Positions 1 through 15,487 are shown, numbered from the stretch's first letter. The stretch: 17,540 nt of DNA from a virus (IMGVR_UViG_3300042934_000306), one strand, 5' to 3'. Translations and numbers: made by a program. The notes: generated by a model not told the origin, from the sequence alone.

Positions 1-612
1 ATGCCGGTGCTTAAACCGTTTATGGACATGGTTAAAAAGTACGGTACGCCATACATCGGCGGCGCGTTCTGTACTGACAGGCTAAAACTCACCCCTTTCA
101 CGAAATATTGCGATGACCATTTTGGGCGAGGGAATTACATCACATGGCTGGGTATTCGTGCGGACGAACCCCGTAGGCTGAAACCGAAACCGGGCGTCCG
201 GTATCTTGCCGAGCTGTCAGATTTTGATAAGTCGGATGTTATCCGGTGGTGGCGAAAACAACCTTTTGATTTGCAAATCCCGGAGCACCTCGGGAACTGT
301 GTTTTTTGCATCAAAAAGTCAACGCAAAAGCTGGGGCTTGCATGTAAAGACGAACCTGGTCTGATGCGAATTTTTAATGAGCTGGTTACAGGCAAACACG
401 TCAGGGATGGTCATCGCAGAACAGGTAAAGACGTTATGTACCGTGGTCACCTGACGCTTGACGGGATTGCCAGAATGTATGCCGACAGCGACTACAGAAA
501 TTTGTATCAGGCGATGGTGCAGGCCAAGCGGTTTGATACTGGTTCGTGTTCCGAATCATGTGAAATCTGGGGTGACCAATTGGAGTTGAGATTCGAAGAG
601 GTAGTGGCATGA
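1..612 (+). CDS. PAPS reductase-like (phosphoadenosine phosphosulfate reductase family) protein, 5'-truncated by window edge
   Basis: ORF open from base 1; GIRADEP segment resembles the G-L-R-R-E-Q-S motif of CysH-type PAPS reductases, plus CxxC; stop TGA 610..612 overlaps next start (ATGA). Family call from memory. Confidence 0.55.
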   Translation: MPVLKPFMDMVKKYGTPYIGGAFCTDRLKLTPFTKYCDDHFGRGNYITWLGIRADEPRRLKPKPGVRYLAELSDFDKSDVIRWWRKQPFDLQIPEHLGNCVFCIKKSTQKLGLACKDEPGLMRIFNELVTGKHVRDGHRRTGKDVMYRGHLTLDGIARMYADSDYRNLYQAMVQAKRFDTGSCSESCEIWGDQLELRFEEVVA

Positions 613-1088
613 CAAACAAAATTGACTATCAAAAGCTTCGTGAAATTGCTGAAAAAACAAAAATTGCTGGTGAAGCGCCTGTAATGCCTTTCGATCAGCG
701 AATTAATGCGCTTAACGATTTTATGAAGCACTTTTCGCCAGATATCGCGTTGGCATTATTGGATGAAGTTAAACGCCTGGAAGACACAAATATCGATGCT
801 ATGTGCCGAATTGCAGAGGTGGAGGCGCGGGAAATAAAACCAGCCAAAGGCGAAGTTCTTGTCGTTGTCTCTGGTTTTACTGGTTGCGGGAAAAGCGCCA
901 TTGCCGGGGAAATAGAAATTGCGATGAAAGCTATTGGCGTGCCGGTTCAATGGACTAATGGCGATGCAGAAAAGCATATGACCGGCGCTGACTGGCTGAC
1001 AGCGATTGAGATGTACAAACCAACTGTGCGCATCGTGGAAGTTAATGTGCCACGCGCCGCTGGCATTCGCATCAAAGAAGGTGAGTAA
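609..1088 (+). CDS. hypothetical phage protein (159 aa), possibly Ead/Ea22-like
   Basis: ATG at 609 overlaps upstream stop; uninterrupted 159-codon ORF; no motif recognised with certainty. Confidence 0.5.
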   Translation: MTNKIDYQKLREIAEKTKIAGEAPVMPFDQRINALNDFMKHFSPDIALALLDEVKRLEDTNIDAMCRIAEVEAREIKPAKGEVLVVVSGFTGCGKSAIAGEIEIAMKAIGVPVQWTNGDAEKHMTGADWLTAIEMYKPTVRIVEVNVPRAAGIRIKEGE

Positions 1089-1264
1089 TGCGTGTGGCAT
1101 GTATCGGCTTGTTACCGTACCCGACTCGTTTTTGGGCTTCTGCGCTAATTGCAAAGCCACATGTCCTGATGGCTGACAACATCATCCCGGCACCAAAGCG
1201 CCGCCATACCGGTATTGCAGCGGCACGACGAGCAGCAAAGAGACGCAGGAGAGCAAAGCGATGA
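1088..1264 (+). CDS. small basic protein (58 aa), Arg/Lys-rich C-terminus
   Basis: ATG at 1088 overlaps upstream TAA (TAATG); translated by hand as MRVACIGLLPYPTRFW...RRAAKRRRRAKR; stop TGA overlaps next ATG at 1261. Not in the supplied track (under 60 aa). Confidence 0.25.
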   Translation: MRVACIGLLPYPTRFWASALIAKPHVLMADNIIPAPKRRHTGIAAARRAAKRRRRAKR

Positions 1265-1437
1265 AAAACCGTAAGGCAAAACGACTTTTTTTACAGCGAC
1301 CTGTGCGTGTGGTGGAGCTGGTTATTAGCAACCATAAGATAGCGGTACTCCATCCATTTGGTCAGGTGGCTTTTGCCGCAAAGCGTAAGCCTACTGCGTC
1401 ACAGAACAGGCGGAAGAAAGGGTACGCAGTAAGATGA
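1261..1437 (+). CDS. small basic protein (58 aa), MKNRKAK N-terminus
   Basis: Hand-translated MKNRKAKRLFLQRPVRVVELVISNHKIAVLHPFGQVAFAAKRKPTASQNRRKKGYAVR; ATGA overlap at both ends; paralogous ends with the 1434..1622 ORF. Confidence 0.3.
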   Translation: MKNRKAKRLFLQRPVRVVELVISNHKIAVLHPFGQVAFAAKRKPTASQNRRKKGYAVR

Positions 1438-1622
1438 AAAACCGTAAAGCAAAGATTCTGTTAGTTCGTAGAAACGCTCCTGGCGTCTGGCAGTGGGTGA
1501 GACTCAGCAACCGACGGATGGGGTTGATGAAATATTACGGGATGATGGATTGTGGTTTTTGCAAAAAGCCCAGCGCGGCGCAAAACCGCTGGAGAAACCA
1601 TTTGCGCACTAAAGGAGAGTGA
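1434..1622 (+). CDS. small basic protein (62 aa), MKNRKAK N-terminus
   Basis: Track ORF MKNRKAKILLVRR...AQNRWRNHLRTKGE; its 3' end carries AAGGAGAG, the SD for the next gene. Confidence 0.35.
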   Translation: MKNRKAKILLVRRNAPGVWQWVRLSNRRMGLMKYYGMMDCGFCKKPSAAQNRWRNHLRTKGE

Positions 1623-1623
1623 T

Positions 1624-1833
1624 ATGGCTATTGCCGCAAGTTACACCATGCATCTCTATTGTGACTGCCGCCAGTGTACGGAAGGTGTATATCCAGTGCC
1701 AGACTTCGGTGAGTATATCGGTACGTCATGGTCTGGTTGTGCAAAAGAGGCCCGTAAAGACGGGTGGCGAATAAGTAAAGACAAAACACGTGCTTTTGCG
1801 CCCGGGCATAAAGTTTTGAGGATTAACAAATGA
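1624..1833 (+). CDS. small Cys-rich protein (69 aa), possible zinc-binding
   Basis: ATG 1624 preceded by AAGGAGAG at 1611..1618; MAIAASYTMHLYCDCRQCTEG...; stop overlaps DUF551 start (ATGA). Confidence 0.5.
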   Translation: MAIAASYTMHLYCDCRQCTEGVYPVPDFGEYIGTSWSGCAKEARKDGWRISKDKTRAFAPGHKVLRINK

Positions 1834-2435
1834 CCACTATTACCAGAGAACAGGCACAGAAAATTATTGAAGCAGCCGATGAGGTTATTAGTGCGCTGGC
1901 CGGAACTAATGAGGATGTTCACCCTGGTAGCGATAACATGCTACGTCTGTGGGATGACCTGAATGACCGTCACGCGCCCCCTGAAGTTGTGCGTGAGTTG
2001 GCACGAATTGTGCTGGCATCGCTGGAAGCAGAGCCTGTAAGCCAAACTTACAACTTGCCAGAATTAATCGAAGGCATGGAAGTTTCCATTGATGTAAGCA
2101 CTTGTGATGCTGATTTAGGTAATCGCTATTTCGGCACCGTCACCGAGGCGTTAGAACTTGATACAGCCAAGAATGGTTACATCCTCCTGGTTCAGGACGC
2201 AGAGCCAAACTTCGATGTAAATGGCAACTCTCCGGTAACTCCGGATGGTTGGATAAGCTGTAGTGAGCGAATGCCCCCTCAAGATGATTGGATTTTAATT
2301 TATTCAAAGCACGGCGAGTATATGGCAGGACAGGTACAAGGGGAATACGTGGAGTTGAGCGACGGCACTTTATCGTGGTTAGGGAACGCCTTGTTCTGGA
2401 TGCCGCTACCAGAACCGCCGCAGGAGGCGAAATGA
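1830..2435 (+). CDS. DUF551-like phage protein
   Basis: C-terminal W-rich segment (DGWISCSERMPPQDDWILIY...) typical of DUF551 proteins in lambdoid early regions; assignment from memory. Confidence 0.65.
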   Translation: MTTITREQAQKIIEAADEVISALAGTNEDVHPGSDNMLRLWDDLNDRHAPPEVVRELARIVLASLEAEPVSQTYNLPELIEGMEVSIDVSTCDADLGNRYFGTVTEALELDTAKNGYILLVQDAEPNFDVNGNSPVTPDGWISCSERMPPQDDWILIYSKHGEYMAGQVQGEYVELSDGTLSWLGNALFWMPLPEPPQEAK

Positions 2436-2692
2436 TGGATGTAAAAGAGAAGGTTTTGCAGGTGATGCGTTCCCGGGCTGCCCTGCAAGATAAAGCTCTC
2501 GGCGGGGAATATCCATTCAGGATGGCAACCTGGAATCTGCGGTTGGCAATGGAGAAGGCATTTCCTGATGAAGAATGGCGTTCGGCAGATTTGCGCAAAA
2601 TTCTTATGGAGCTGGCTAAAGACGGAACAGTATCCAAAGATACCCATGCCAGCCGGATTGGTCAGGCGGTATGGAGACTGGAGGTGAGGTAA
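2432..2692 (+). CDS. hypothetical protein (about 86 aa)
   Basis: ATGATG at 2432/2435 after GGAGG at 2423..2427, overlapping the upstream TGA; the track ORF 2288..2692 start is in-frame but overlaps the upstream gene. Confidence 0.5.
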   Translation: MMDVKEKVLQVMRSRAALQDKALGGEYPFRMATWNLRLAMEKAFPDEEWRSADLRKILMELAKDGTVSKDTHASRIGQAVWRLEVR

Positions 2693-2973
2693 TGGCTAAC
2701 CTGCAACTTGCCGTTAAAGGTGAATACTTCGATGCCATGATTCGCGGGGAGAAAACGGAAGAGTATCGCCTGTGTAATGACTACTGGAATAAGCGCCTCG
2801 TTAACCGTAAGTATTACCGCCTGATTATCACAAAGGGATATCCGAAGCGCAAAGACTTCAGTCGCAGAATTGACGTCCCGTATAACGGATATGAAATAAA
2901 AACAATCACACATCCACACTTCGGTGATAAACCGGTAAAGGTGTTCGCGATAAAAGTGAAGATTAATAGCTAA
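2692..2973 (+). CDS. ASCH-domain-like protein (93 aa)
   Basis: ATG 2692 after GGAGGTGAGG, TAATG overlap with upstream stop; N-terminus MANLQLAVKGEYFDAMIRGEKTEEYR resembles the ASCH/PUA-like signature. Confidence 0.45.
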   Translation: MANLQLAVKGEYFDAMIRGEKTEEYRLCNDYWNKRLVNRKYYRLIITKGYPKRKDFSRRIDVPYNGYEIKTITHPHFGDKPVKVFAIKVKINS

Positions 2974-2996
2974 ATTTCAATTAACACGGAGTAATT

Positions 2997-3290
2997 ATGT
3001 GGCGCGGTAATAATCATGGCGGAAGTCAGATGATACTTACCGAATATACGTTCGACCACAAAACCAATAAATCACGTTCAGTATATTTGCTTCGGCACAA
3101 TAGCCGCGTAAGAAATACCGTTCTGGAGCAAAATCTGACCGTTGAAATGGATAATTTGGGAAACTTCAAGCCAACAATATCGCTTGATGATTTTCCGTGT
3201 GGTTTAAGCGAAAGAGAAGCAATGCTGAAATTAGCAGAATGGTTACAAAGATTGAGCATTGCTATTGAAGATAACTGGATTCAACCATAA
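2997..3290 (+). CDS. hypothetical protein (97 aa)
   Basis: ORF with GGAG five nt upstream of ATG 2997. Confidence 0.45.
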   Translation: MWRGNNHGGSQMILTEYTFDHKTNKSRSVYLLRHNSRVRNTVLEQNLTVEMDNLGNFKPTISLDDFPCGLSEREAMLKLAEWLQRLSIAIEDNWIQP

Positions 3291-3314
3291 TGAAAAACAG
3301 AAAGAAAGATTGCT

Positions 3315-3524
3315 ATGGCAACATTTAGTAAATTCGCAGTAATTATTATTTTATTAATTCCCCTCACTGTTACAGCAGGGGAACAGCAACATTGCACAAA
3401 AGAGAATGAACACCCTTTCATCGTTATTCAATGCGATGACGGAACGGTGACTGTGGTTAATGTAAGAAATGACCGTGTAGCTGTTTGCCGTAAAGGCGAA
3501 CCATGCAAGGAAATAAAACTATGA
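3315..3524 (+). CDS. small secreted or periplasmic protein (69 aa), signal-peptide-like N-terminus, 4 Cys
   Basis: MATFSKFAVIIILLIPLTVTAGEQQ... hydrophobic leader followed by a Cys-containing mature part; stop overlaps next start (ATGA). Confidence 0.5.
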   Translation: MATFSKFAVIIILLIPLTVTAGEQQHCTKENEHPFIVIQCDDGTVTVVNVRNDRVAVCRKGEPCKEIKL

Positions 3525-4270
3525 CAAGAATCACTAAAGAGCGTATTTCAGATATTATTTCCCGTATCGAAATGTATGGTCACGGTGCTGGATACACAGC
3601 AGATGAAGTATTGGAGCTTGCCAAAATAGCTTTAGCGCCTTGCAAGGATGGTAAAGCTATGACACTGATTGACTTGTTAGTGAAGGAATTATCTAAGGGG
3701 CGTGGATGGCCTGATGGAAAAGATTTTTGCCATCTATCCATTACGATGCCAGGTAGTAGTCGCGCTACGGTTCTTTTTGGTACGCGCCATAAAAATTACC
3801 AATCATCAAAGAATTATTCCATTGATGGCATTATTTGCGATATCAGTGACCTTGATCGCAGTGCGTTTACATCGGTTGTCACTCGTGAACAGTATGAAGC
3901 AGCTCGCATAGCGTCTCAGAAAGTTAAGTCTGAAAGTAAGGCTTACAAGTTAGATTTTGAGCAATGGCTGGAACAGCAACGCGGGAAAATCGATGTGGAC
4001 TGCGGTTGTGTGTCTGCGGAAACATTCATGCACTGGTTGCGGGTAGCTTATGAGGCTGGGAACCATCCGGATTTTCCGGATAGTTCCCAACAAGCGCCCA
4101 GGAAAAGCGTAAAAACCACTCTGGAAAGAGGCTATCTTGAGGCCGCATTAAAGATTAAGCCGGGCCATACACTAGGCGTCATTGATGCCATGTTGGTTCA
4201 TGAAATGGCGAAGGCTTTATTGCCGCTGGTGGCTGATAAACATGAGGCGGACCATGCCAACGAAAGCTGA
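3521..4270 (+). CDS. hypothetical phage protein (249 aa)
   Basis: ATG 3521 with AGGA upstream and ATGA coupling to the preceding ORF; the alternative in-frame ATG at 3503 would overlap the previous gene by 22 nt. Confidence 0.6.
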   Translation: MTRITKERISDIISRIEMYGHGAGYTADEVLELAKIALAPCKDGKAMTLIDLLVKELSKGRGWPDGKDFCHLSITMPGSSRATVLFGTRHKNYQSSKNYSIDGIICDISDLDRSAFTSVVTREQYEAARIASQKVKSESKAYKLDFEQWLEQQRGKIDVDCGCVSAETFMHWLRVAYEAGNHPDFPDSSQQAPRKSVKTTLERGYLEAALKIKPGHTLGVIDAMLVHEMAKALLPLVADKHEADHANES

Positions 4271-4538
4271 GTTACAGGCGCGCATAGAGATTCTTGAAAA
4301 AGAGAATGCGAGTCTAAAAGGAATGCTGGCGCGGGCGGAAAGGGAATTATCAGGCAAATTATTGCCAGAAGAGCTGCCACCAGCAGATATACCTGATCGA
4401 GTGTCCTGGTGGATGAAGTATTTCCGTGCACCGTGGGAGGCGTTTTGGTGCTACGACCATCGCAGATGGTGTGATGAGCTTGATAGCAGTTTCCCCTATT
4501 TTGCGGAAGGGAACTCTTGCCCTGAATGTAGGAGTTAA
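4254..4538 (+). CDS. hypothetical coiled-coil protein (94 aa)
   Basis: ATG 4254 after GAGG; the track ORF from 4182 overlaps the upstream gene; heptad-like AELQARIEILEKENASLKGMLARAEREL. Confidence 0.45.
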   Translation: MPTKAELQARIEILEKENASLKGMLARAERELSGKLLPEELPPADIPDRVSWWMKYFRAPWEAFWCYDHRRWCDELDSSFPYFAEGNSCPECRS

Positions 4539-4586
4539 TGATGACCGGCGATAACGCGTTTGCACCAAAGGTGTCTCTTTAATGTA

Positions 4587-4606
4587 TACTGTATAAATGA
4601 ACAGTA
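4587..4606 (+). promoter_or_regulatory. LexA (SOS) box TACTGTATAAATGAACAGTA overlapping a TATAAA -10-like hexamer, 20 bp upstream of humD
   Basis: Exact CTGT-N8-ACAG with the flanking TA..TA of the enterobacterial consensus, read directly from the sequence. Confidence 0.8.
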
Positions 4607-4625
4607 TTATTGAGGTGAAAACGCT

Positions 4626-5015
4626 ATGGGCTTCCCTTCTCCTGCGGCGGACTATGTTGAAAGCAGAATTTCTCTTGATCAGCAACTAATCAGGCATCCA
4701 TCAGCGACATACTTCATGCGGGCGGCAGACAGCCATCACCGTGAGGGAATATTGCAGGGTGCTTTGCTGGTGGTTGATTCTTCGCTTACTCCAGTTGATG
4801 GTTCGCTGCTTGTGTGCGCTATGGAGGGTGAATATCGCATAAAGAGATACCGAAAGTATCCGCGCCAGCACCTGGAGGATTTAAGCACCGGGAAGAAAGA
4901 GGCGTTACCAGTAGATGACGATGGTTACACGGGTAGTAATGCTGTTTTTGGTGTGATCACTCATGTCATCAATGATGCCCGAAGTGGGGAGTTTGATGAT
5001 TGTCCGGTCATTTAA
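4626..5015 (+). CDS. humD: UmuD-prime-like protein (HumD-type), lacks the cleavable N-terminal tail
   Basis: Starts MGFPSPAADYVESRISLDQQLIRHPSATYF, aligning to UmuD from Gly25 (the RecA-mediated cleavage product); GAGGTGA SD; sits immediately upstream of phd-doc as in P1. Confidence 0.8.
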   Translation: MGFPSPAADYVESRISLDQQLIRHPSATYFMRAADSHHREGILQGALLVVDSSLTPVDGSLLVCAMEGEYRIKRYRKYPRQHLEDLSTGKKEALPVDDDGYTGSNAVFGVITHVINDARSGEFDDCPVI

Positions 5016-5056
5016 GCTGCAAAGTGCTGGTGCTTTATGCCTGTGAAGTTTATGAT

Positions 5057-5078
5057 TGTGTACACATAACGAGTACAC
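5057..5078 (+). promoter_or_regulatory. putative Phd/Doc operator: TGTGTACACA palindrome plus GAGTACAC half-repeat just upstream of phd
   Basis: Perfect 10-bp palindrome 5057..5066 and a related 8-mer 5071..5078 ending 10 nt before the phd ATG; matches what I recall of the P1 phd operator. Confidence 0.45.
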
Positions 5079-5087
5079 GAGGTGTTT

Positions 5088-5309
5088 ATGCAGTCCATTA
5101 ACTTCCGTACCGCGCGCGGCAACCTTTCTGAATTGCTCAACAATGTTGAAGCCGGGGAAGAGGTTGAAATCACCCGCAGAGGCCGTGAACCAGCAGTAAT
5201 TGTCAGCAAGGCTACTTTCGAAGCCTACAAAAAGGCGGCGCTGGATGCTGAATTTGCATCCCTGTTTGACACCCTGGACTCCACCAACAAGGAACTGGTT
5301 AACCGATAA
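5088..5309 (+). CDS. phd: Phd antitoxin (prevent-host-death)
   Basis: [73 protein letters not shown] is near-identical to P1 Phd as I remember it; 73 aa; stop overlaps doc ATG. Confidence 0.9.
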
Positions 5310-5689
5310 TGAGGCATATATCACCGGAAGAACTTATTGCGCTTCATGATGCGAATATAAGCCGCTACGGCGGCCTGCCGGGAATGTCAGATCCGGGTAG
5401 GGCAGAGGCCATTATCGGGAGAGTTCAGGCCAGAGTTGCCTACGAAGAGATCACCGACCTTTTCGAAGTCTCCGCAACCTACCTGGTGGCTACTGCGAGA
5501 GGGCATATATTCAATGATGCCAATAAGCGTACCGCGCTAAACAGTGCGCTGCTATTTCTACGCCGTAACGGTATACAGGTATATGATTCTCCCGTGCTGG
5601 TGGAACTTGCGGTGGGGGCTGCAACTGGTGAAATCCCCGTATCTTCAGTAGCGGAAAAACTACGTGAACTATATGGTTCCAATATTTGA
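5309..5689 (+). CDS. doc: Doc toxin (death-on-curing, Fic-fold kinase)
   Basis: [40 protein letters not shown]... matches P1 Doc; includes the [11 protein letters not shown] Fic-like motif; 126 aa. Confidence 0.9.
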
Positions 5690-5692
5690 AAA

Positions 5693-5718
5693 GAAGCCCG
5701 CTCAACCAAGCGGGCTTC
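5693..5718 (-). terminator. intrinsic terminator: perfect 10-bp stem GAAGCCCGCT/AGCGGGCTTC, 6-nt loop, between convergent doc and the minus-strand operon
   Basis: On the minus strand the hairpin is followed directly by TTTTC; it lies 7 nt after the stop of the 5725..6819 gene. Confidence 0.55.
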
Positions 5719-5724
5719 CTACTA

Positions 5725-6819
5725 TCACTCAATGATTTTTTCTGCTGTCAGCCAGCTAATTTCTTGCCTGTCTTTCGGCGGTTTTAGCATGTGGGCGTAT
5801 TCAGCGACATTCCCCCACGGAATTGTTTTTGCCCACTCAACGATAGCATTGTGATCTGCAGTGAAGAGTGGAATGGTGTGCGATTTCAACCACTCTAATG
5901 TTGTAACGCCATGTTTTTTGGCGTGGTGCTGTGCATGATGCTTGGCTATCACTCGTAATGGCATTGTCCATTCACTGCCATCAGGCATTGAAAAACGCAT
6001 TGTTTTCGGCATATCTGATTCAAGAACAGCCTCCCTAATACCAGGGAACTCACCAAGAATCATACGACGGTAGTCATCACTATTTCGCCCGCCATACCTT
6101 TCGGCAAAATGATCAAGATATTCTTGGGTAATAAATGGTGAATCCTCAGCACTCAGCTTAATGGCTTTATAGACACCACTCGGATTATCTTCAGCTAAAG
6201 CACGCCCATGATGAGAATCATAGAAAAATCCTATTTCCTCTGGTGACGGAATTGAAGTGAGCAATATGCGTGAATCACCACTAGTCATGCTTGCCCACAC
6301 AATACTGTATGCCCGATCGCTTATATGTGCGGAATCCACAATAATGAATAACAGATGGTCGGCGTAGTGACCTGCAATGCTATCTTCATAGTTAAGGCGG
6401 TAGTTACAAAAGCACATTCCCCAAAATTCATTGAACATCAGACCGCTATCACCGACCTTAAAATACTCAATGATAAAAGGTTGTTTTTTCAGTAATGCCT
6501 CCCAACATTGCCACACATATGCAACAATTCCTTTTTTGCAAGCATTTGATTTTGGATAAACAATTACTGTCCGGGAATCAGGATACATAATCGTATAAAG
6601 GGTACTAATAACAGCAAGCACTTGCGGTCGTCCGATCCCATGCGGAGTTGTGACAGTAGCTTTTGCATTATTGGGCTGTATAGCTTCAACAATTTGTTGT
6701 TGCTGGTGGCTTAAATCAATATCAAACAATTCTTTTGCTGCCAGAACCCAATTGTCTTTATATTTCTCCACCAGCGACAGCCAGCGCGGATCTTTATAAA
6801 TATTGCTCTTAGTCGCCAT
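5725..6819 (-). CDS. terminase-large-subunit (PacB-like) paralog, ATPase motifs degenerate, nuclease domain absent (365 aa)
   Basis: Start taken at ATG 6819 (MATKSNIYKDPRW...) after AAGGAAGTGG, overlapping the upstream stop. Aligns by eye to the 502-aa PacB-like protein in this window (SHQQQQI, FYDSHH, ESPF-T, GEFP blocks); Walker A is PHGIGRP rather than GHGTGKS, Walker B is IIVDSA rather than LILDEA. Confidence 0.65.
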   Translation of the reverse strand: MATKSNIYKDPRWLSLVEKYKDNWVLAAKELFDIDLSHQQQQIVEAIQPNNAKATVTTPHGIGRPQVLAVISTLYTIMYPDSRTVIVYPKSNACKKGIVAYVWQCWEALLKKQPFIIEYFKVGDSGLMFNEFWGMCFCNYRLNYEDSIAGHYADHLLFIIVDSAHISDRAYSIVWASMTSGDSRILLTSIPSPEEIGFFYDSHHGRALAEDNPSGVYKAIKLSAEDSPFITQEYLDHFAERYGGRNSDDYRRMILGEFPGIREAVLESDMPKTMRFSMPDGSEWTMPLRVIAKHHAQHHAKKHGVTTLEWLKSHTIPLFTADHNAIVEWAKTIPWGNVAEYAHMLKPPKDRQEISWLTAEKIIE

Positions 6820-7576
6820 CTGCCACTTCCTTAACTTCTTCTTTGGCCTGCTCTGCAATCGCCGCACGGCATTTGGCCCTTGCTGTAGCGATTGCTTCAG
6901 CACGCACATCATCAGGAATCGTTGACGTGATATACATATCCAGTTCTTCGGCGCGGAACACTGTTTGGTCCAGATATTCGCGTAGCATCCAGGTAAATTC
7001 GAAATCACACGCGATAATCTCTGCGCTACCCTCTGCACCATTTGGGAAATGAATAAATGCCTGTTTAGCCAAACCGATAACACGACATGCGGTTGCCAAA
7101 ACAGCGACAACCAGGTTTACATTTTCACACGCTACGGGCTGATTAACACCGGAGATTACTCCATTTAACTGTCGGTTATATGGAAGGTAGTTTGAGATGC
7201 GTTCTACGCGCCATGTGCCAGTCAGGCTGCCATTTTTAAAGATAATTGGTGTAACGGATAGCCCAAGCTCGCGTATAAGTCGTTGCGCTATAGCAGGATC
7301 ATTAAACAGGTCTAATGCTACACATTCGAAAGACTGTGCAAGGGCAAACAGTTCTTCCAGAGAGTAGTCTTTGCCCCTGGCGGTGATGTAACGACGAACG
7401 CCGCTGTCTGCATCACTCCATATAGCTACGCCATGCTCTTCATTCAGCTCTTCATTAAAGCCGAGATACGTCATGATAGTGCGTTCAATCGTGTCAAACG
7501 GCAGTGACATGTCGGCGTTAACAGCCACCAGCAGGCCATTACGCAAGCGGTATTGAATTGTTTTGGTGCTTTCCAT
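6809..7576 (-). CDS. hypothetical protein (255 aa), translationally coupled to the terminase paralog
   Basis: GGAG upstream of ATG 7576; its stop TAA sits inside ATGGCGACTAA, the start of the next gene; acidic C-terminal tail; no recognised motif. Confidence 0.55.
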   Translation of the reverse strand: MESTKTIQYRLRNGLLVAVNADMSLPFDTIERTIMTYLGFNEELNEEHGVAIWSDADSGVRRYITARGKDYSLEELFALAQSFECVALDLFNDPAIAQRLIRELGLSVTPIIFKNGSLTGTWRVERISNYLPYNRQLNGVISGVNQPVACENVNLVVAVLATACRVIGLAKQAFIHFPNGAEGSAEIIACDFEFTWMLREYLDQTVFRAEELDMYITSTIPDDVRAEAIATARAKCRAAIAEQAKEEVKEVADGD

Positions 7577-7582
7577 GTCAAA

Positions 7583-8233
7583 TCACTCCACTACAAACCA
7601 GTCACAAGCCAGTAAATCATCAACATACGGCAACCAAACGCTGTCCATATTTTGTGCATCTTTCAATACGAAATGGTCACCATAAGGAACCTGAATGTCG
7701 TGTAAATTGACGCTCCCAGCGAGAACTAACCAGCAGAATTGCTTTTCGCCTTTCCACTCGCGTCGAGCTACATTTTTTCCTTCTTTCAGCCACATTAGCG
7801 CATCAGAAAAGTCGGCTGCTTCAAGGTCGATTTCCTCTTGCTGGGTAGTGGTACCACCAGCAGAAATAGTTACACTCCCGGTAATATTAATCATCACGCC
7901 GTTGTCATCCGTAATGATGACCGTGGTTCCATTTTCGGAGGCGTCGTTAACCAGGCCATAGCATTCCTCAAATGGTTTCTCCGGGGCATAGAACAGATAA
8001 CCGTTTTCATAAACGATCAGATACCCGCCAGTTTTTGGTCGGTGTTTTTGTAAAAACATTGCGTCAACACAAACTGTTGCCCCTTTTGGTTCAACGAGTT
8101 CAATGCAGCCCCAAAGTGGGGCATCAGTTACTCCGAAAATAACAACATTTTTGATTTTCGATGCACTAACGTTTTTGTGAGCTTTGTATTTGGGAAGGAA
8201 CTTAAAAAGCTCTTTCGTTGCCATGTAATTCAT
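7583..8233 (-). CDS. two-domain protein (216 aa): unknown N-terminal domain fused to a DUF2829/Tad2-like C-terminal domain
   Basis: AGGAAAGG SD before ATG 8233; C-terminal FSDALMWLKEGKNVARREW ... LPYVDDLLACDWFVVE fits the signature I associate with DUF2829; not verified by HMM. Confidence 0.5.
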   Translation of the reverse strand: MNYMATKELFKFLPKYKAHKNVSASKIKNVVIFGVTDAPLWGCIELVEPKGATVCVDAMFLQKHRPKTGGYLIVYENGYLFYAPEKPFEECYGLVNDASENGTTVIITDDNGVMINITGSVTISAGGTTTQQEEIDLEAADFSDALMWLKEGKNVARREWKGEKQFCWLVLAGSVNLHDIQVPYGDHFVLKDAQNMDSVWLPYVDDLLACDWFVVE

Positions 8234-8247
8234 AGCCTTTCCTCTGC

Positions 8248-8742
8248 TTAAAACTTTGCGTACTGAAGCGGTGTGCGCTTGATTTCAAAGTGGTCTTCCG
8301 ATGTGCTACCAAAGCCACCAGCACCACGTTCCGTTTCGTTGAGTTCCTCAACCTCGACTAGTGAGACTTGTTCAACACGCTCAAAAATGCCTTGCATGAC
8401 AGCCATTCCAGGCTTGAGACAAACGCCTTCCCCGCCGGGATCAGTAATCAGTTTTGCCATGATTTCACCGCGATAATCTGAGTCGATAATTCCTACGCAG
8501 TTAGCCAGGCGAGTATGTTTTTTGCAGCCCAATCCGGAGCGCGGATAGAGTTTCAGACACCAGCCGGGCGGGATCTCCATAGCCAGTCCGGTGTACACCC
8601 ACCAGCTTGAGGAAATTGCACCATTGCTATCGACGCATGGTTTTATTTCAACAGCCTCAAAATCCATCGCCGCCGATCCGGAGGTGGCATAAGCTGGAAG
8701 TTTTGCTGCCGGATGTAGGCGTTTCACTTTTACGTAAATCAT
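8248..8742 (-). CDS. dut: dUTPase (trimeric Dut family) with an insertion between motifs I and II
   Basis: All five Dut motifs readable: YATSGSAAMD, PRSGLG, GIIDSDYRGE, AVMQGIF, RGAGGFGSTS; ATGA coupling to the upstream gene. Confidence 0.85.
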   Translation of the reverse strand: MIYVKVKRLHPAAKLPAYATSGSAAMDFEAVEIKPCVDSNGAISSSWWVYTGLAMEIPPGWCLKLYPRSGLGCKKHTRLANCVGIIDSDYRGEIMAKLITDPGGEGVCLKPGMAVMQGIFERVEQVSLVEVEELNETERGAGGFGSTSEDHFEIKRTPLQYAKF

Positions 8743-9215
8743 TGTTTTTTAGCTCTCTGCGTGAAGGTGTAAACCCGACGTTTGATATGTGGAACGGTAG
8801 GAACAGGAAGACAGGAACTTTCAATAACTCCTTGCTCCTCCAGCGATCGCACCGCCCGCAAGAACTGCGACGTGTCGCCGCCAAACTGGCGGGCATAGGT
8901 GCTGCCGTTATGAAGTATTTGAGCTATTACCCGAGCTTTTGTCTGGCTGTCACGATATGCGAATAGCCGCACGGCCTCTTCTGGCGCAATCGCTAACTGA
9001 TAGCCTTTCCCGGCACGGTGTCGAATGAATCCATGCGCCAGTAGGTTTTTGAGTTCGTTACGAGTGCGAACAGTTCCGTAATCCAGGAAGTGTGGATTGA
9101 TAACGACTGGCTTAAACCATTCCGTAGGTGCTTTAGCTAATAGAGCTAACAGCTTCCCGGATAATTCTGGATAGGAAGACGGGTAACAATTCAGAGATGG
9201 GTAATAAGTTTTCAC
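8739..9215 (-). CDS. hypothetical protein (158 aa)
   Basis: GTG start at 9215 after a GGGGG SD-like run, overlapping the upstream stop (GTGA); no motif recognised. Confidence 0.5.
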   Translation of the reverse strand: MKTYYPSLNCYPSSYPELSGKLLALLAKAPTEWFKPVVINPHFLDYGTVRTRNELKNLLAHGFIRHRAGKGYQLAIAPEEAVRLFAYRDSQTKARVIAQILHNGSTYARQFGGDTSQFLRAVRSLEEQGVIESSCLPVPTVPHIKRRVYTFTQRAKKQ

Positions 9216-9556
9216 CGACGCCCCCTTGCAGGATATCGACCTGCATTAGTATCCGGTGCAATAAAGCCGGTAGTGGGGCGAGTGAAAGCGAGATTAATCT
9301 TCTCGACCATAGTGCGATAATTTTCCTGATAGTGGGCCAGGAGTTTTTCGGCGGCAATGATGGTTACTTTCCGGACGTAGCTTTCTGCTTCCGCCAGATT
9401 TCGCCAGTTTTTTTCGAGGGTAAACACAGGGACGGCCTCAAGCCCGGTCATGATGCCGAACACAACGACAGCATGACTGTTCTTAACACCAGCGGCGAAG
9501 GTTACGGTGTAACCTTCCACCTTGAAGCGTCTTGATTCCGTGATTTGACTCTGCAA
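9212..9556 (-). CDS. hypothetical protein (114 aa), first gene of the minus-strand operon, TTG start
   Basis: TTG at 9556 preceded by TAGGAGGGTG (strong SD, 5-nt spacing); 73-bp AT-rich gap after the recombinase stop. Confidence 0.5.
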   Translation of the reverse strand: MQSQITESRRFKVEGYTVTFAAGVKNSHAVVVFGIMTGLEAVPVFTLEKNWRNLAEAESYVRKVTIIAAEKLLAHYQENYRTMVEKINLAFTRPTTGFIAPDTNAGRYPARGRR

Positions 9557-9629
9557 AGCACCCTCCTAAATAGGCGAGGGTACTTTACAGCAAAGGCGTT
9601 AATCTAAAAAGATGTGTTAGAAATTTAAT

Positions 9630-10658
9630 TTATAAATCCATCAGGCGGCTATTAGCCCCCACAGACACGCCGCCACGGCGAAGATACCGCATAAGTGTTT
9701 CCGGTTTCTTCCAGGTTCCTTCCTGCATGATCTCCACCATAGACACCTGCTTTTCAGCCATATCAATAGCGGCCCCGACGCGTGCACTATGCCCGGTCCA
9801 CGTCCGGTATCTTCCTTTGTTTGGCGTAGCATCTCTTTTATTCAGCAACACCCAGGCGTCGCTGAATATTTTCTCCATTGCAGGTGCAGTAAGGGGCGTT
9901 GTCGTGAGCCTGGCCTTATTGCTACGGTGTATCGGCGGGAACAGCACTGCGTCAGGATGTTCGCGAAGCCCTGAAACATCCAGCCAGTCATTCAGCACAG
10001 CGGTAGTGCGACGGGAAAGCACCTTATCAAGCCCGGCGGCGGTCGTTATTGTCTTCGTGTGTGAAATATGTAGCGTGACAGTGTCACCTGTTTGGTCCAG
10101 ATCTCCTACACGAATACGCGATATTTCCGACATACGCATCAGCGTATTGTATGCAACAAAGAGAAAAGCCCGGTTGCGCAGGTCCACCAGCCGTTCTGAC
10201 CTGGACAGCAGGACGTCGAGCAGTTTCAGATCGTCCCACCGCAGCGGTATAGCCTGGCCTGTTCGTTCGCCTTTTTCAGTTGCCGCTTCGCGCCGGATGC
10301 GCCGCATAGCCAGAGAAACACTTTTATCATCCGAAAGTGGTGGAAGGCCACAATGCGAAAGCAGCATGTTCAGCATGGCGTAGTGCTTATCAATGGTGGT
10401 CGAAGCCAGATCAGCATCATGCAGCTGAAGAAAATACTCGCGGGCCATCTCTGGTGAGATCGGGAACCAGGCGAGCTGGCGAGCGTGACACCATCTCGCC
10501 CAAGAGTGAAACACTAACCGGAGATCGCGCAAAGTATTCGGCGCGTAAGCCCCCTGGTCATTCATGAACCGCATAAAGTTTTCTGCGGCCTCCTGGTACT
10601 CTTTGCCAATGTTGCGCAGAAAACCACCGGAACTGCCAGAGATAATTAATTCACTCAT
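9630..10658 (-). CDS. dre: Cre-family tyrosine site-specific recombinase (Dre-like)
   Basis: 342 aa; aligns to P1 Cre across its length at roughly 45-50 percent identity by eye (AYNTLMRMSEISRIRVGDL, HSARVGAA, TWTGHSARVGAAIDMA blocks); adjacent rox-like site. Confidence 0.8.
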   Translation of the reverse strand: MSELIISGSSGGFLRNIGKEYQEAAENFMRFMNDQGAYAPNTLRDLRLVFHSWARWCHARQLAWFPISPEMAREYFLQLHDADLASTTIDKHYAMLNMLLSHCGLPPLSDDKSVSLAMRRIRREAATEKGERTGQAIPLRWDDLKLLDVLLSRSERLVDLRNRAFLFVAYNTLMRMSEISRIRVGDLDQTGDTVTLHISHTKTITTAAGLDKVLSRRTTAVLNDWLDVSGLREHPDAVLFPPIHRSNKARLTTTPLTAPAMEKIFSDAWVLLNKRDATPNKGRYRTWTGHSARVGAAIDMAEKQVSMVEIMQEGTWKKPETLMRYLRRGGVSVGANSRLMDL

Positions 10659-10810
10659 GAAACTATTTGACCTCTATATACAGATGACGCTACGCGAAAA
10701 ATATAAAAATGACAGGGTAGCTATAAGTTAATTTTCAAAATACAAGCCTTTGATTCGAGGCACGTATTTTCAGTGATGTCAACACTGTTCATCTACACAT
10801 GATTATAGCC

Positions 10811-10842
10811 TAACTTTAAATAATGCCAATTATTTAAAGTTA
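10811..10842. other. rox-type recombination site: TAACTTTAAATAAT-GCCA-ATTATTTAAAGTTA (perfect 14-bp inverted repeats, 4-bp asymmetric spacer)
   Basis: Read directly; lies 153 bp upstream of the recombinase start; identical to the rox sequence as I recall it from phage D6. Confidence 0.8.
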
Positions 10843-11052
10843 TAAAATGGCGATTTTTTTTAATCCATCACGGATTGATTCTGACCAGTAACACGTTGCC
10901 TTCATGGTCTTTAATTTGCGAAGTGTGGTTTATACAGTTGGTTTTCTAAAATTGATGACAAAAAATCACAGTTCGATCCTTTACTCACTCTGTTATTCGA
11001 CATAAATTTGTCATAGTAATTTTATGTTAGAAAACTAAATCGAGTAGGAATA

Positions 11053-12090
11053 ATGAGTAAGAAGTCGATCGAGAAAGAGTACAAACGGTTCCTGCAAACC
11101 GCTGAACGGTGGAAAGAGCTGGTGGTCGCAAACTCTGTTTTCCATGATACCAGTTATGCTGGCGAGGAATTCCGCCATGTTGCATTAACGCATGACCAAA
11201 ACATATTAGAAGAAGCTGAAAAATGTCTTGCTGAATGGAAAGCCTTCGTTGACATGTGTCGCGATGCCGACGGCAAAGCGTCGAACATTGTTGAGTCTGT
11301 ATATTCTCCGATCCCATTCATCATTGAGGACACCAATCAAAGCACGCATGTTGTTGTGCAAAGCGCTACAACAACACGTACATTTACACGTGAACAATTG
11401 CTCAAAAAATACGACAAAATCATAAAGAAAAGCCTGAAAAATAGGGTTTTTTCTCAAATCGTAGGTGCTCTTGAAGAAGAACAGCGCTTCTTTGAAGCTG
11501 AGCCTGAAGGCGAGATCTACCGGGCGCGTAAAGAGGCATATACAGATGTTGTGCTGACAACAAACATCGAAGGCAGCAATGCCCTTTCTCGCTTTAGAGT
11601 TGGCGCACATGGCGCATTGGTTTTCGCAAGGCTACCGAAGACAACGATCCCCGTTGTCAATAATGTTGGTGAACGCCGGAGCATTACAATTTATTCTGGC
11701 GTCGAATCGGTACCTTGCAGCCTTCTCGGCGATTTTAACTTATATCGTGTTCGTGACCTGGAAAAACACCAGCCAAGCTACGTTGCGAAGTCGTACATCT
11801 TAAGGAACATCGATATTCGCAATGAAAGCCTTAAGCAGAAATCCGCTAAGATGCTGGAGGATGCCGATCCGGCTATTCGCCATATCATTGAGCGTAAGAT
11901 ACGTACATCACGTGAAGCAATGGCAAGGCTGGATAAAATGGATCTGGAATTGTTAGACGTAATGATGGCCTCTGGAGACGACCTGACCGGCATTAAACTG
12001 AATGAAGCTCGTAAAAAATACGGCAAAGCAATCGAAGAACGTTACGGATACACATTCCCCCAAACGCAGTACGCCGCGAAGCTCTGGTAA
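11053..12090 (+). CDS. hypothetical protein (345 aa) at the position P1 uses for its c1 immunity operon
   Basis: AGGA SD before ATG 11053; transcribed from the rox side towards pacB; no HTH or similarity to C1 that I can recognise. Confidence 0.6.
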   Translation: MSKKSIEKEYKRFLQTAERWKELVVANSVFHDTSYAGEEFRHVALTHDQNILEEAEKCLAEWKAFVDMCRDADGKASNIVESVYSPIPFIIEDTNQSTHVVVQSATTTRTFTREQLLKKYDKIIKKSLKNRVFSQIVGALEEEQRFFEAEPEGEIYRARKEAYTDVVLTTNIEGSNALSRFRVGAHGALVFARLPKTTIPVVNNVGERRSITIYSGVESVPCSLLGDFNLYRVRDLEKHQPSYVAKSYILRNIDIRNESLKQKSAKMLEDADPAIRHIIERKIRTSREAMARLDKMDLELLDVMMASGDDLTGIKLNEARKKYGKAIEERYGYTFPQTQYAAKLW

Positions 12091-15379: not shown

Positions 15380-15487
15380 TAATCCCCCGGGCAGGAAATG
15401 ACCGAGGGGATGATAATGAGAATGTTAAAACTGTATAGACTGGTAAAAAGATGATTATATTAGAAAATTAATATTAAACACCTAACG

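Follow-up and report, generated by a model that had tools for sequence, protein, structure and literature searches.

Six genes lie head to tail downstream of the recombinase gene dre in the viral sequence IMGVR_UViG_3300042934_000306 (17,540 nucleotides (nt), hereafter the window). They encode two proteins matched in phage D6 (orf114 and orf158), a dUTPase (Dut), a fusion of an OB-fold domain with a Tad2 domain, a homolog of the P1 protein IsaA and a degenerate paralog of the large terminase PacB. On balance, we favour the view that they form the post-dre accessory operon of a D6-type phage-plasmid, probably repressor-controlled, with a role in early host takeover and counter-defence and not in building the virion. 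The anatomy of the operon, the homologies and folds of its products, the loss of catalytic motifs, purifying selection and allele replacement carry this view, and from them we infer the regulation, the ligand and every biological role proposed below. An earlier, sequence-only reading of the same DNA had described a tightly coupled accessory operon and suggested that it is a cassette for counter-defence or competition between phages. What it described holds, and what it suggested finds support in part.

Organisation of the operon

Over bases 5300-10800, the window matches pFSIS11814474-2 (CP123702.1), a D6-like phage-plasmid of Salmonella Mbandaka, at 100% identity. Phage D6 itself aligns to the same bases with 96% identity over 72% of their length. 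All six open reading frames (ORFs) of the sequence-only reading are present on the minus strand (9556..5725) downstream of dre, from which orf114 is separated by a gap of 73 nt. The tight coupling claimed for them is borne out by junctions of -4, -4, +14, +6 and -11 nt, counted from orf114 to the last gene. The terminator expected at the downstream end was recovered as well: its arms, GAAGCCCGC and GCGGGCTTC, form a G+C-rich stem of 9-13 base pairs (bp) followed by UUUU on the minus strand, and the fold reaches -22 kcal/mol (z = -4.67), compared with -19.1 kcal/mol on the plus strand, where the U-tract is missing. The same hairpin also closes the convergent gene doc, from which it is 2 nt away. 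Two details had to be adjusted. The last ORF had been given 365 amino acids (aa) and has 364, since both its PHROG profile and plasmid annotations support the ATG at 6819 as its start. The strong Shine-Dalgarno sequence (AGGAGGG) and TTG start at 9556 are both present, yet both are buried in a 15-bp hairpin. As part of the reading that we favour on balance, the six genes would constitute one polycistronic, partly translationally coupled unit, closed by a strong terminator. An Rfam search of bases 5200-11200 found no family.

By homology, the operon is a mosaic of two modules. Module A, with orf114, orf158 and dut, is specific to the D6 lineage, and module B (the OB-Tad2 fusion, isaA and the PacB-like gene) is shared with P1-like phages. 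Comparison with diverged D6-like loci bears the ORFs out as real genes. The ratio of non-synonymous to synonymous substitution rates (dN/dS) lies at 0.05-0.13 in the PacB-like gene, at 0.11-0.16 in isaA and at 0.06-0.18 in dut; in orf114 and orf158, where most comparisons involve fewer than 10 substitutions, it is ~0.2-1.0.

Allele replacement within a conserved operon

Identity across six D6-like loci is 93-100% for Dre, the products of orf114 and orf158, Dut, IsaA and the PacB-like protein, and Dre is 100% identical over 341 residues to that of D6 itself. The Tad2-like protein is 58-79% identical across these loci, and its two domains vary independently. When the operon is compared in 100-nt windows with plasmid L016, identity is 93-100% except in two blocks. 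One of them, at 7600-7999, covers the Tad2 domain (53-86%) and the other, at 6100-6899, covers the pseudo-ATPase domain of the PacB-like protein together with the tail of isaA (48-72%); the C-terminal domain of the PacB-like protein is 89-99% identical. A joint divergence of IsaA and the PacB-like protein was considered and dropped, as isaA of L016 is 95-100% identical up to its last ~50 nt, with the pseudo-ATPase at ~60%. Judging from these alignments, replacement limited to two domains is what would be expected of parts that face a variable partner, as in genes in conflict.

The OB-Tad2 fusion protein

The 216-aa protein had been proposed to be a Tad2-like fusion, and it belongs to the Tad2 family by sequence, by fold and by three of its four ligand-contact residues, joined to an OB domain. 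Residues 141-215 match PF11195 (Tad2/DUF2829) at 61.7 bits against a cut-off of 25, and Tad2 chains in the PDB are matched at E 7e-9. Structure prediction (predicted local distance difference test, pLDDT, 77) divides the protein into three parts, among them the Tad2 fold and, at residues 98-135, a beta-rich linker modelled with low confidence. In Tad2 of phage SPO1 the ligand is contacted by W25, N26, W73 and D79 (10.1101/2023.05.01.538930); the equivalents of W25, W73 and D79 in our protein (W160, W200 and D206) are invariant in 44 homologs. Taken together, sequence and fold model indicate that the protein carries a genuine Tad2 domain.

This domain would bind and sequester a nucleotide immune signal of the Thoeris, CBASS or Pycsar type. 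The family as a whole covers signals of Thoeris types I, II and IV, CBASS and Pycsar (PMC12393519). Signal sequestration by Tad2 is the only mechanistically grounded prediction for the operon. The presence of Tad2 in D6-like elements is not new, because a 2025 preprint already lists Tad2/AcrIIA7 matches for 93% of D6-like and 56% of P1-like elements. SPO1 Tad2, ModTad2 and HgmTad2 (= AcrIIA7) share domain family and fold with our protein, in which the W25, W73 and D79 equivalents are kept. However, the known sponges are stand-alone proteins of ~90 aa, whereas ours is not a small stand-alone Tad2: it has 216 aa, an N-terminal OB-fold and a linker, and a lysine in place of N26.

The OB-Tad2 core also occurs in other architectures (P0033, P0074 and relatives), one with an N-terminal tail-fibre repeat (PF03406) and others that end in a crAss001_48 domain (PF21825) at the C-terminus. 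All of them have the linker IDLEAADFSDALMWLKEGK in near-invariant form.

The PacB-like pseudo-terminase

The least expected part of the operon is its pseudo-terminase, which stands for a protein family that is truly uncharacterised and of potential interest. With its 364 aa, it is paralogous to the PacB of the same element, with 38% identity confined to the ATPase domain, and structure prediction places the TerL ATPase-domain fold in it. The sequence-only reading had called it a dead terminase, and its motifs agree. Walker A reads GIGRPQ where PacB has GTGKSS (GKS to GRP), and Walker B reads IVDSA where PacB has ILDEA (DE to DS), so that neither the Walker A lysine nor the catalytic glutamate remains. 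These positions are degenerate in all five paralog clusters, in which FYDSHH and the C-motif region are retained. Homology to PacB stops at residue 259, and the RNase H-like nuclease domain is absent, replaced by a C-terminal domain of ~105 aa. In comparison with the large terminase PacB of P1 and D6, the ATPase fold, FYDSHH and the C-motif region are thus common to both, whereas the Walker A lysine, the catalytic glutamate and the nuclease domain are found only in PacB and the new C-terminal domain only in the PacB-like protein. From these motif losses, the PacB-like protein can probably neither hydrolyse ATP nor cut DNA.

The C-terminal domain (bases 5728-6057 of the window) is widespread: many phages encode it by itself, as a protein of ~100 aa, and it has 197 cluster representatives at E < 1e-3. 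It matches the C-terminal end of phrog_17928, and one protein (P0264) joins it to DUF1351. Its stand-alone homologs have no Pfam match, fall only into PHROGs of unknown function and carry uninformative cluster names. A PDB sequence search with the whole PacB-like protein gave nothing meaningful.

The paralogs form one clade with 47-65% mutual identity, and they are equally distant (33-38% identity) from D6-type and P1-type PacB, which makes the duplication old. This equal distance also ruled out the idea that the PacB-like allele tracks the PacB of its own element. Wherever the gene was seen, isaA is its immediate predecessor and the two overlap by 8-14 nt. Among the plasmids of PLSDB, 111 carry orf114-orf158 (>=80% coverage) and 34 the PacB-like type. 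P1 isaB as a remnant of the PacB-like gene was ruled out, as tblastn finds only pacB in reference P1.

Such a protein would act by binding something through its terminase-shaped domain, which has diversified between plasmids. Our most specific proposal for it is tentative and, in our own estimate, unlikely to be right. The protein would be a conflict protein of a new kind, a dead mimic of the terminase ATPase under purifying selection, serving either as a decoy or inhibitor for Avs-type NLRs of the host that sense terminases or as a poison subunit for the motors of rival P1-family phages. It would always be paired with IsaA and, together with the OB-Tad2 protein, would make up a two-pronged, allele-shuffling island of counter-defence.

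Dut, the IsaA homolog and the two D6-specific genes

Dut matches Pfam PF00692 (E 1.7e-14) and the NCBIfam equivalog NF001862 (121.6 bits against a cut-off of 103). Matches to dUTPases in the PDB reach E 2e-25, with PRSG, IDSDYRGE and RGAGGFGST conserved. All five motifs are present, and motifs II, III and V are intact when aligned to the solved enzymes 8y1q and 3mbq. An insertion had been attributed to this enzyme. Its residues 10-147 align with residues 15-149 of E. coli Dut, and this alignment contains no large extra motif or insertion of tens of residues within the core: the net difference is ~3 residues, in addition to a C-terminal tail of 16 residues. The large extra motif of the moonlighting dUTPases of staphylococci is theirs, and Dut has no such insertion. 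By its motifs and alignments, Dut is a canonical trimeric dUTPase, for which an exotic explanation is needless. It is predicted to clear dUTP from the nucleotide pool during phage replication.

A natural in-frame fusion of Dut and Tad2 (241 aa) occurs in P0072, from E. coli contigs of up to 88.6 kilobases (kb). Residues 1-144 of Dut are joined to the linker and the Tad2 domain, with motif V of Dut and the OB domain gone. It looks like a deletion between adjacent dut and Tad2-like genes.

The 255-aa protein is 48% identical to P1 IsaA over 88% of its length (E 6e-66), with 52 invariant columns in the family alignment, and the family is confined to Enterobacteriaceae contigs of ~87-110 kb. Searches of Pfam and of PDB profiles gave no match and no meaningful match, respectively, and hence no functional clue. 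In P1, isaA is dispensable for lytic growth, and ssb, isaA and isaB score as non-essential (PMC10695390). Together with the absence of the PacB-like gene from D6, this dispensability upholds the accessory, non-morphogenetic character that the operon had been assigned.

The first two genes belong to PHROGs families that carry no function, orf114 to phrog_1968 (E 5e-47) and orf158 to phrog_6669 (E 3e-98). Among 50,697 phage records D6 is the sole match of both. Their searches against Pfam, NCBIfam, PADLOC and the PDB returned only weak matches, far under the curated cut-offs. Some records annotate orf114 differently, as an ORF of 102 aa with a start further downstream.

Table 1. Features of the post-dre operon and its surroundings, in window positions.
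Feature	Position	Strand	Description
orf114	9556..9212	minus	TTG start, AGGAGGG 5 nt upstream; = D6 orf117/orf2
orf158	9215..8739	minus	GTG start, 4-nt overlap with the orf114 stop codon; = D6 orf116/orf3
dut	8742..8248	minus	Trimeric-type dUTPase, catalytic motifs intact
216-aa gene	8233..7583	minus	OB-fold (Dec-like) N-terminal domain, beta-rich linker and C-terminal Tad2/DUF2829 domain; hypervariable locus
255-aa gene	7576..6809	minus	IsaA homolog
PacB-like gene	6819..5725	minus	364 aa, ATG start; pseudo-terminase
Intrinsic terminator	5691..5720	minus	Hairpin and UUUU, end of the operon
dre	9630..10658	minus	Cre-like tyrosine recombinase, upstream neighbour on the same strand
Putative D6-type C1 operator	9613..9628	minus	TTAAATTTCTAACACA; immediately follows the stop codon of dre, 56 nt ahead of the start of orf114
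15-bp hairpin	9551..9590	minus	orf114 Shine-Dalgarno sequence and TTG paired with an upstream non-coding arm

The operon is flanked by phd-doc, which lies on the plus strand and is convergent, and on its other side by dre, rox, c1, pacB, pacA and lpa. Bases 1-5300 of the window hold a long plus-strand run of small genes that converges on the operon and is followed by phd-doc. According to the plasmid annotation, these genes encode a PAPS-reductase-like protein, DUF551, Eaa and ASCH proteins, a second Phd-like antitoxin and a HumD-like S24 peptidase.

Predicted regulation

The C1 operator consensus of P1, ATTGCTCTAATAAATTT, has no match in the window with up to 3 mismatches. Therefore, a D6-specific motif was sought. 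The 16-mer TTARWTTTCTAAYAYA occurs on the 92.6-kb plasmid 9 times exactly, 11 times with at most 1 mismatch and 15 times with at most 2, compared with 0.1 (at most 1 mismatch) and 0.85 (at most 2 mismatches) in shuffled sequences. Most sites are intergenic, and copies lie before c1, lpa, ref, rdgC and the repL region and in the gap between dre and orf114; several of them occupy the places of C1 operators in P1. Three copies fall in the window, all on the minus strand (9613-9628, 11023-11038 and 15456-15471), the first of which is also kept in D6 and in all but one of five further plasmids. The 16-mer and the P1 operator Ossb have an ATT...TCTAA core in common, and TTTCTAAC is a stretch of the putative operator motif. 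No operators are annotated in the D6 record. Its recurrence and placement suggest that the 16-mer is probably the C1 operator of D6-type elements.

Transcription of the six genes might start at a weak promoter in the dre-orf114 gap, might arrive as read-through from dre, or both. The sigma-70-like promoter in the gap overlaps the putative operator. The only strong promoter nearby (TTGGCA-16-TATAAT, 10829..10802), a near-consensus sigma-70 promoter, lies upstream of dre, points toward it and overlaps the rox site at 10811-10842, which matches the published rox sequence of D6. A C1-type repressor would hold the six genes low in the plasmid prophage while dre stays on, and the genes would switch on early after infection or induction. 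The stable hairpin on the first ribosome-binding site would additionally restrain the translation of orf114 and of the genes that are coupled to it. Its 15 bp are perfect, its energy is -25.6 kcal/mol (z = -5.07) and none of 200 shuffled sequences was equally stable. Moreover, the stem is invariant across the D6-like loci, with every substitution in the loop. Since orf158 and dut overlap their predecessors by 4 nt, the hairpin could throttle the first three genes.

Weighing the alternatives

Several points weigh against a repressor-controlled operon for host takeover and counter-defence. The operator is defined solely by the recurrence of its sequence. The gap promoter (TTAAAT-16-TAGATT) is weak, with 3/6 and 4/6 hexamer matches, and was read by eye below the scan threshold. 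No terminator separates dre from orf114, so that the genes could be expressed in a lysogen. PADLOC gave no meaningful match for any of the six proteins, and for four of them the searches returned no functional clue. In the Tad2 domain, the contact N26 is Lys161 in this allele, and Asn in most other alleles. Additionally, the OB domain and a linker reminiscent of the trimeric stalk of Dec from phage L may misfit the known tetramer of Tad2 sponges. Finally, a canonical dUTPase suits plain DNA metabolism equally well as counter-defence. The claim of a counter-defence cassette stands for the Tad2-like gene only; the dUTPase, canonical and devoid of a moonlighting insertion, does not share in it.

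The last of these points leads to a plain replication-support operon, in which Dut and its neighbours would aid phage DNA metabolism and the Tad2-like gene would be a passenger. We regard this as possible but unlikely. The dUTPase is indeed intact, module B shares an operon with ssb in P1 and SJ46, and five of the six proteins have no match to a defence or anti-defence model. However, replication helpers are not expected to swap for 50-60% divergent alleles between otherwise identical plasmids, and the ligand-contact tryptophans and aspartate of Tad2 are kept. The dispensability of ssb and isaA in P1 also speaks against it, as does a terminase-fold pseudo-enzyme that has no obvious role in replication. 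Alternatively, the operon could serve competition between phages: the dead PacB paralog, possibly with IsaA, would join or titrate the PacA and PacB of related P1-family phages, whether co-resident or superinfecting, and stall their packaging. Here the conservation of the PacB fold and of many non-catalytic residues despite the loss of the catalytic ones, the purifying selection on the gene, the swapping of its terminase-like domain between alleles, its occurrence in about one third of the orf114-orf158 plasmids and its constant place right after isaA would all fit. We nevertheless consider it rather improbable, because a single old clade at equal distance from both PacB types gives no sign of matching to a target, the element would also threaten its own packaging, and an operon under repressor control would be silent in the resident prophage, at the very stage when excluding others would pay off most.

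In the plasmid prophage, the six genes could be co-transcribed with dre for plasmid maintenance or for the benefit of the host, given that they lie on the same strand 73 nt away, with no terminator in between, and that a strong promoter precedes dre. A Tad2-like gene of another E. coli prophage is highly expressed in lysogeny (PMC12922286). Against this, a conserved operator motif stands exactly between dre and orf114, the first ribosome-binding site is occluded by the hairpin, and no protein of the six resembles a maintenance function; we hold this alternative for quite improbable. We give hardly any credence to a role of the PacB-like protein in packaging or morphogenesis, as a regulatory subunit of the pacase of its own element. 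It is a paralog of PacB, and some records annotate it as 'terminase large subunit', but it has neither the ATPase motifs nor a nuclease domain, and both D6, which is viable as a phage, and the P1 reference genome do without it. Nor is its gene linked to pacA and pacB, which occupy an operon of their own 5 kb away. An accessory operon for early host takeover and counter-defence is the explanation that we retain.

Implications

E. coli, Shigella and Salmonella, clinical lineages among them, commonly carry phage-plasmids of the P1/D6 type, whose accessory genes decide on host entry and persistence. Natural variation within the operon is concentrated in the Tad2-like and pseudo-terminase genes, which makes these two candidate determinants of host range. 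For D6-type immunity, the 16-mer is a likely operator. Should the pseudo-terminase turn out to act as a decoy or to poison motors, it would represent a new use, by a phage, of a dead copy of a core virion-assembly enzyme.

Comparison with D6, P1 and related elements

D6, although it has only five of the genes, and all D6-like plasmids examined share this operon layout. The post-dre genes of D6 (orf2, orf3 and dut of AY753669; orf117-orf113 of NC_050154) have the same position, order and strand as in the window. Protein identity is 96-100% for dre, orf114, orf158, dut and isaA, and the terminator hairpin is the same. D6 differs in that it has no PacB-like gene and in that its DUF2829 protein, of 146 aa, has no OB domain. 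Moreover, D6 carries pdcA between doc and the shared hairpin (L001 3295-3492), so that the hairpin of D6 sits between pdcA and isaA, whereas bases 5690-5724 of the window are without pdcA and the hairpin has the PacB-like gene on its other side.

In the P1 family, three of the six genes have homologs, located in the ssb operon and not after cre. At the tail of that operon, the counterparts of our three distal genes follow one another as they do here, with the same overlap between isaA and the PacB-like gene, and in P1 they lie behind a C1 operator. This tail differs from ours in genomic place and promoter, in sequence (48-52% identity) and in being without dut, orf114 and orf158. SJ46 has the order ssb, OB-Tad2 fusion (J46_0048), isaA, and P1 variants without IS1 have ssb, isaA, PacB-like gene; in both, the module B genes abut the Dar anti-restriction genes hxr-ddrB-ddrA-darA. 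The reference P1 record annotates the C1 operator Ossb before the ssb operon, which IS1 interrupts, and in the tail of this operon reference P1 has IS1 and an unrelated isaB.

According to the sequence-only reading, conservation of the six genes with known functions across P1-family genomes, for example as homologs of cra, ref or mat, would speak against it. None of the six is such a homolog: orf114 and orf158 match only D6, the other four have different identities, and the Ref and Mat homologs sit elsewhere on the same plasmid (CP123702.1), at 36.4 and 39.2 kb. The ref gene of P1 is controlled by C1. Although it shares no homology with the operon described here, the post-cre region of P1 (c8, ref, mat) likewise places one or more repressor-controlled accessory genes after a recombinase of the Cre family.

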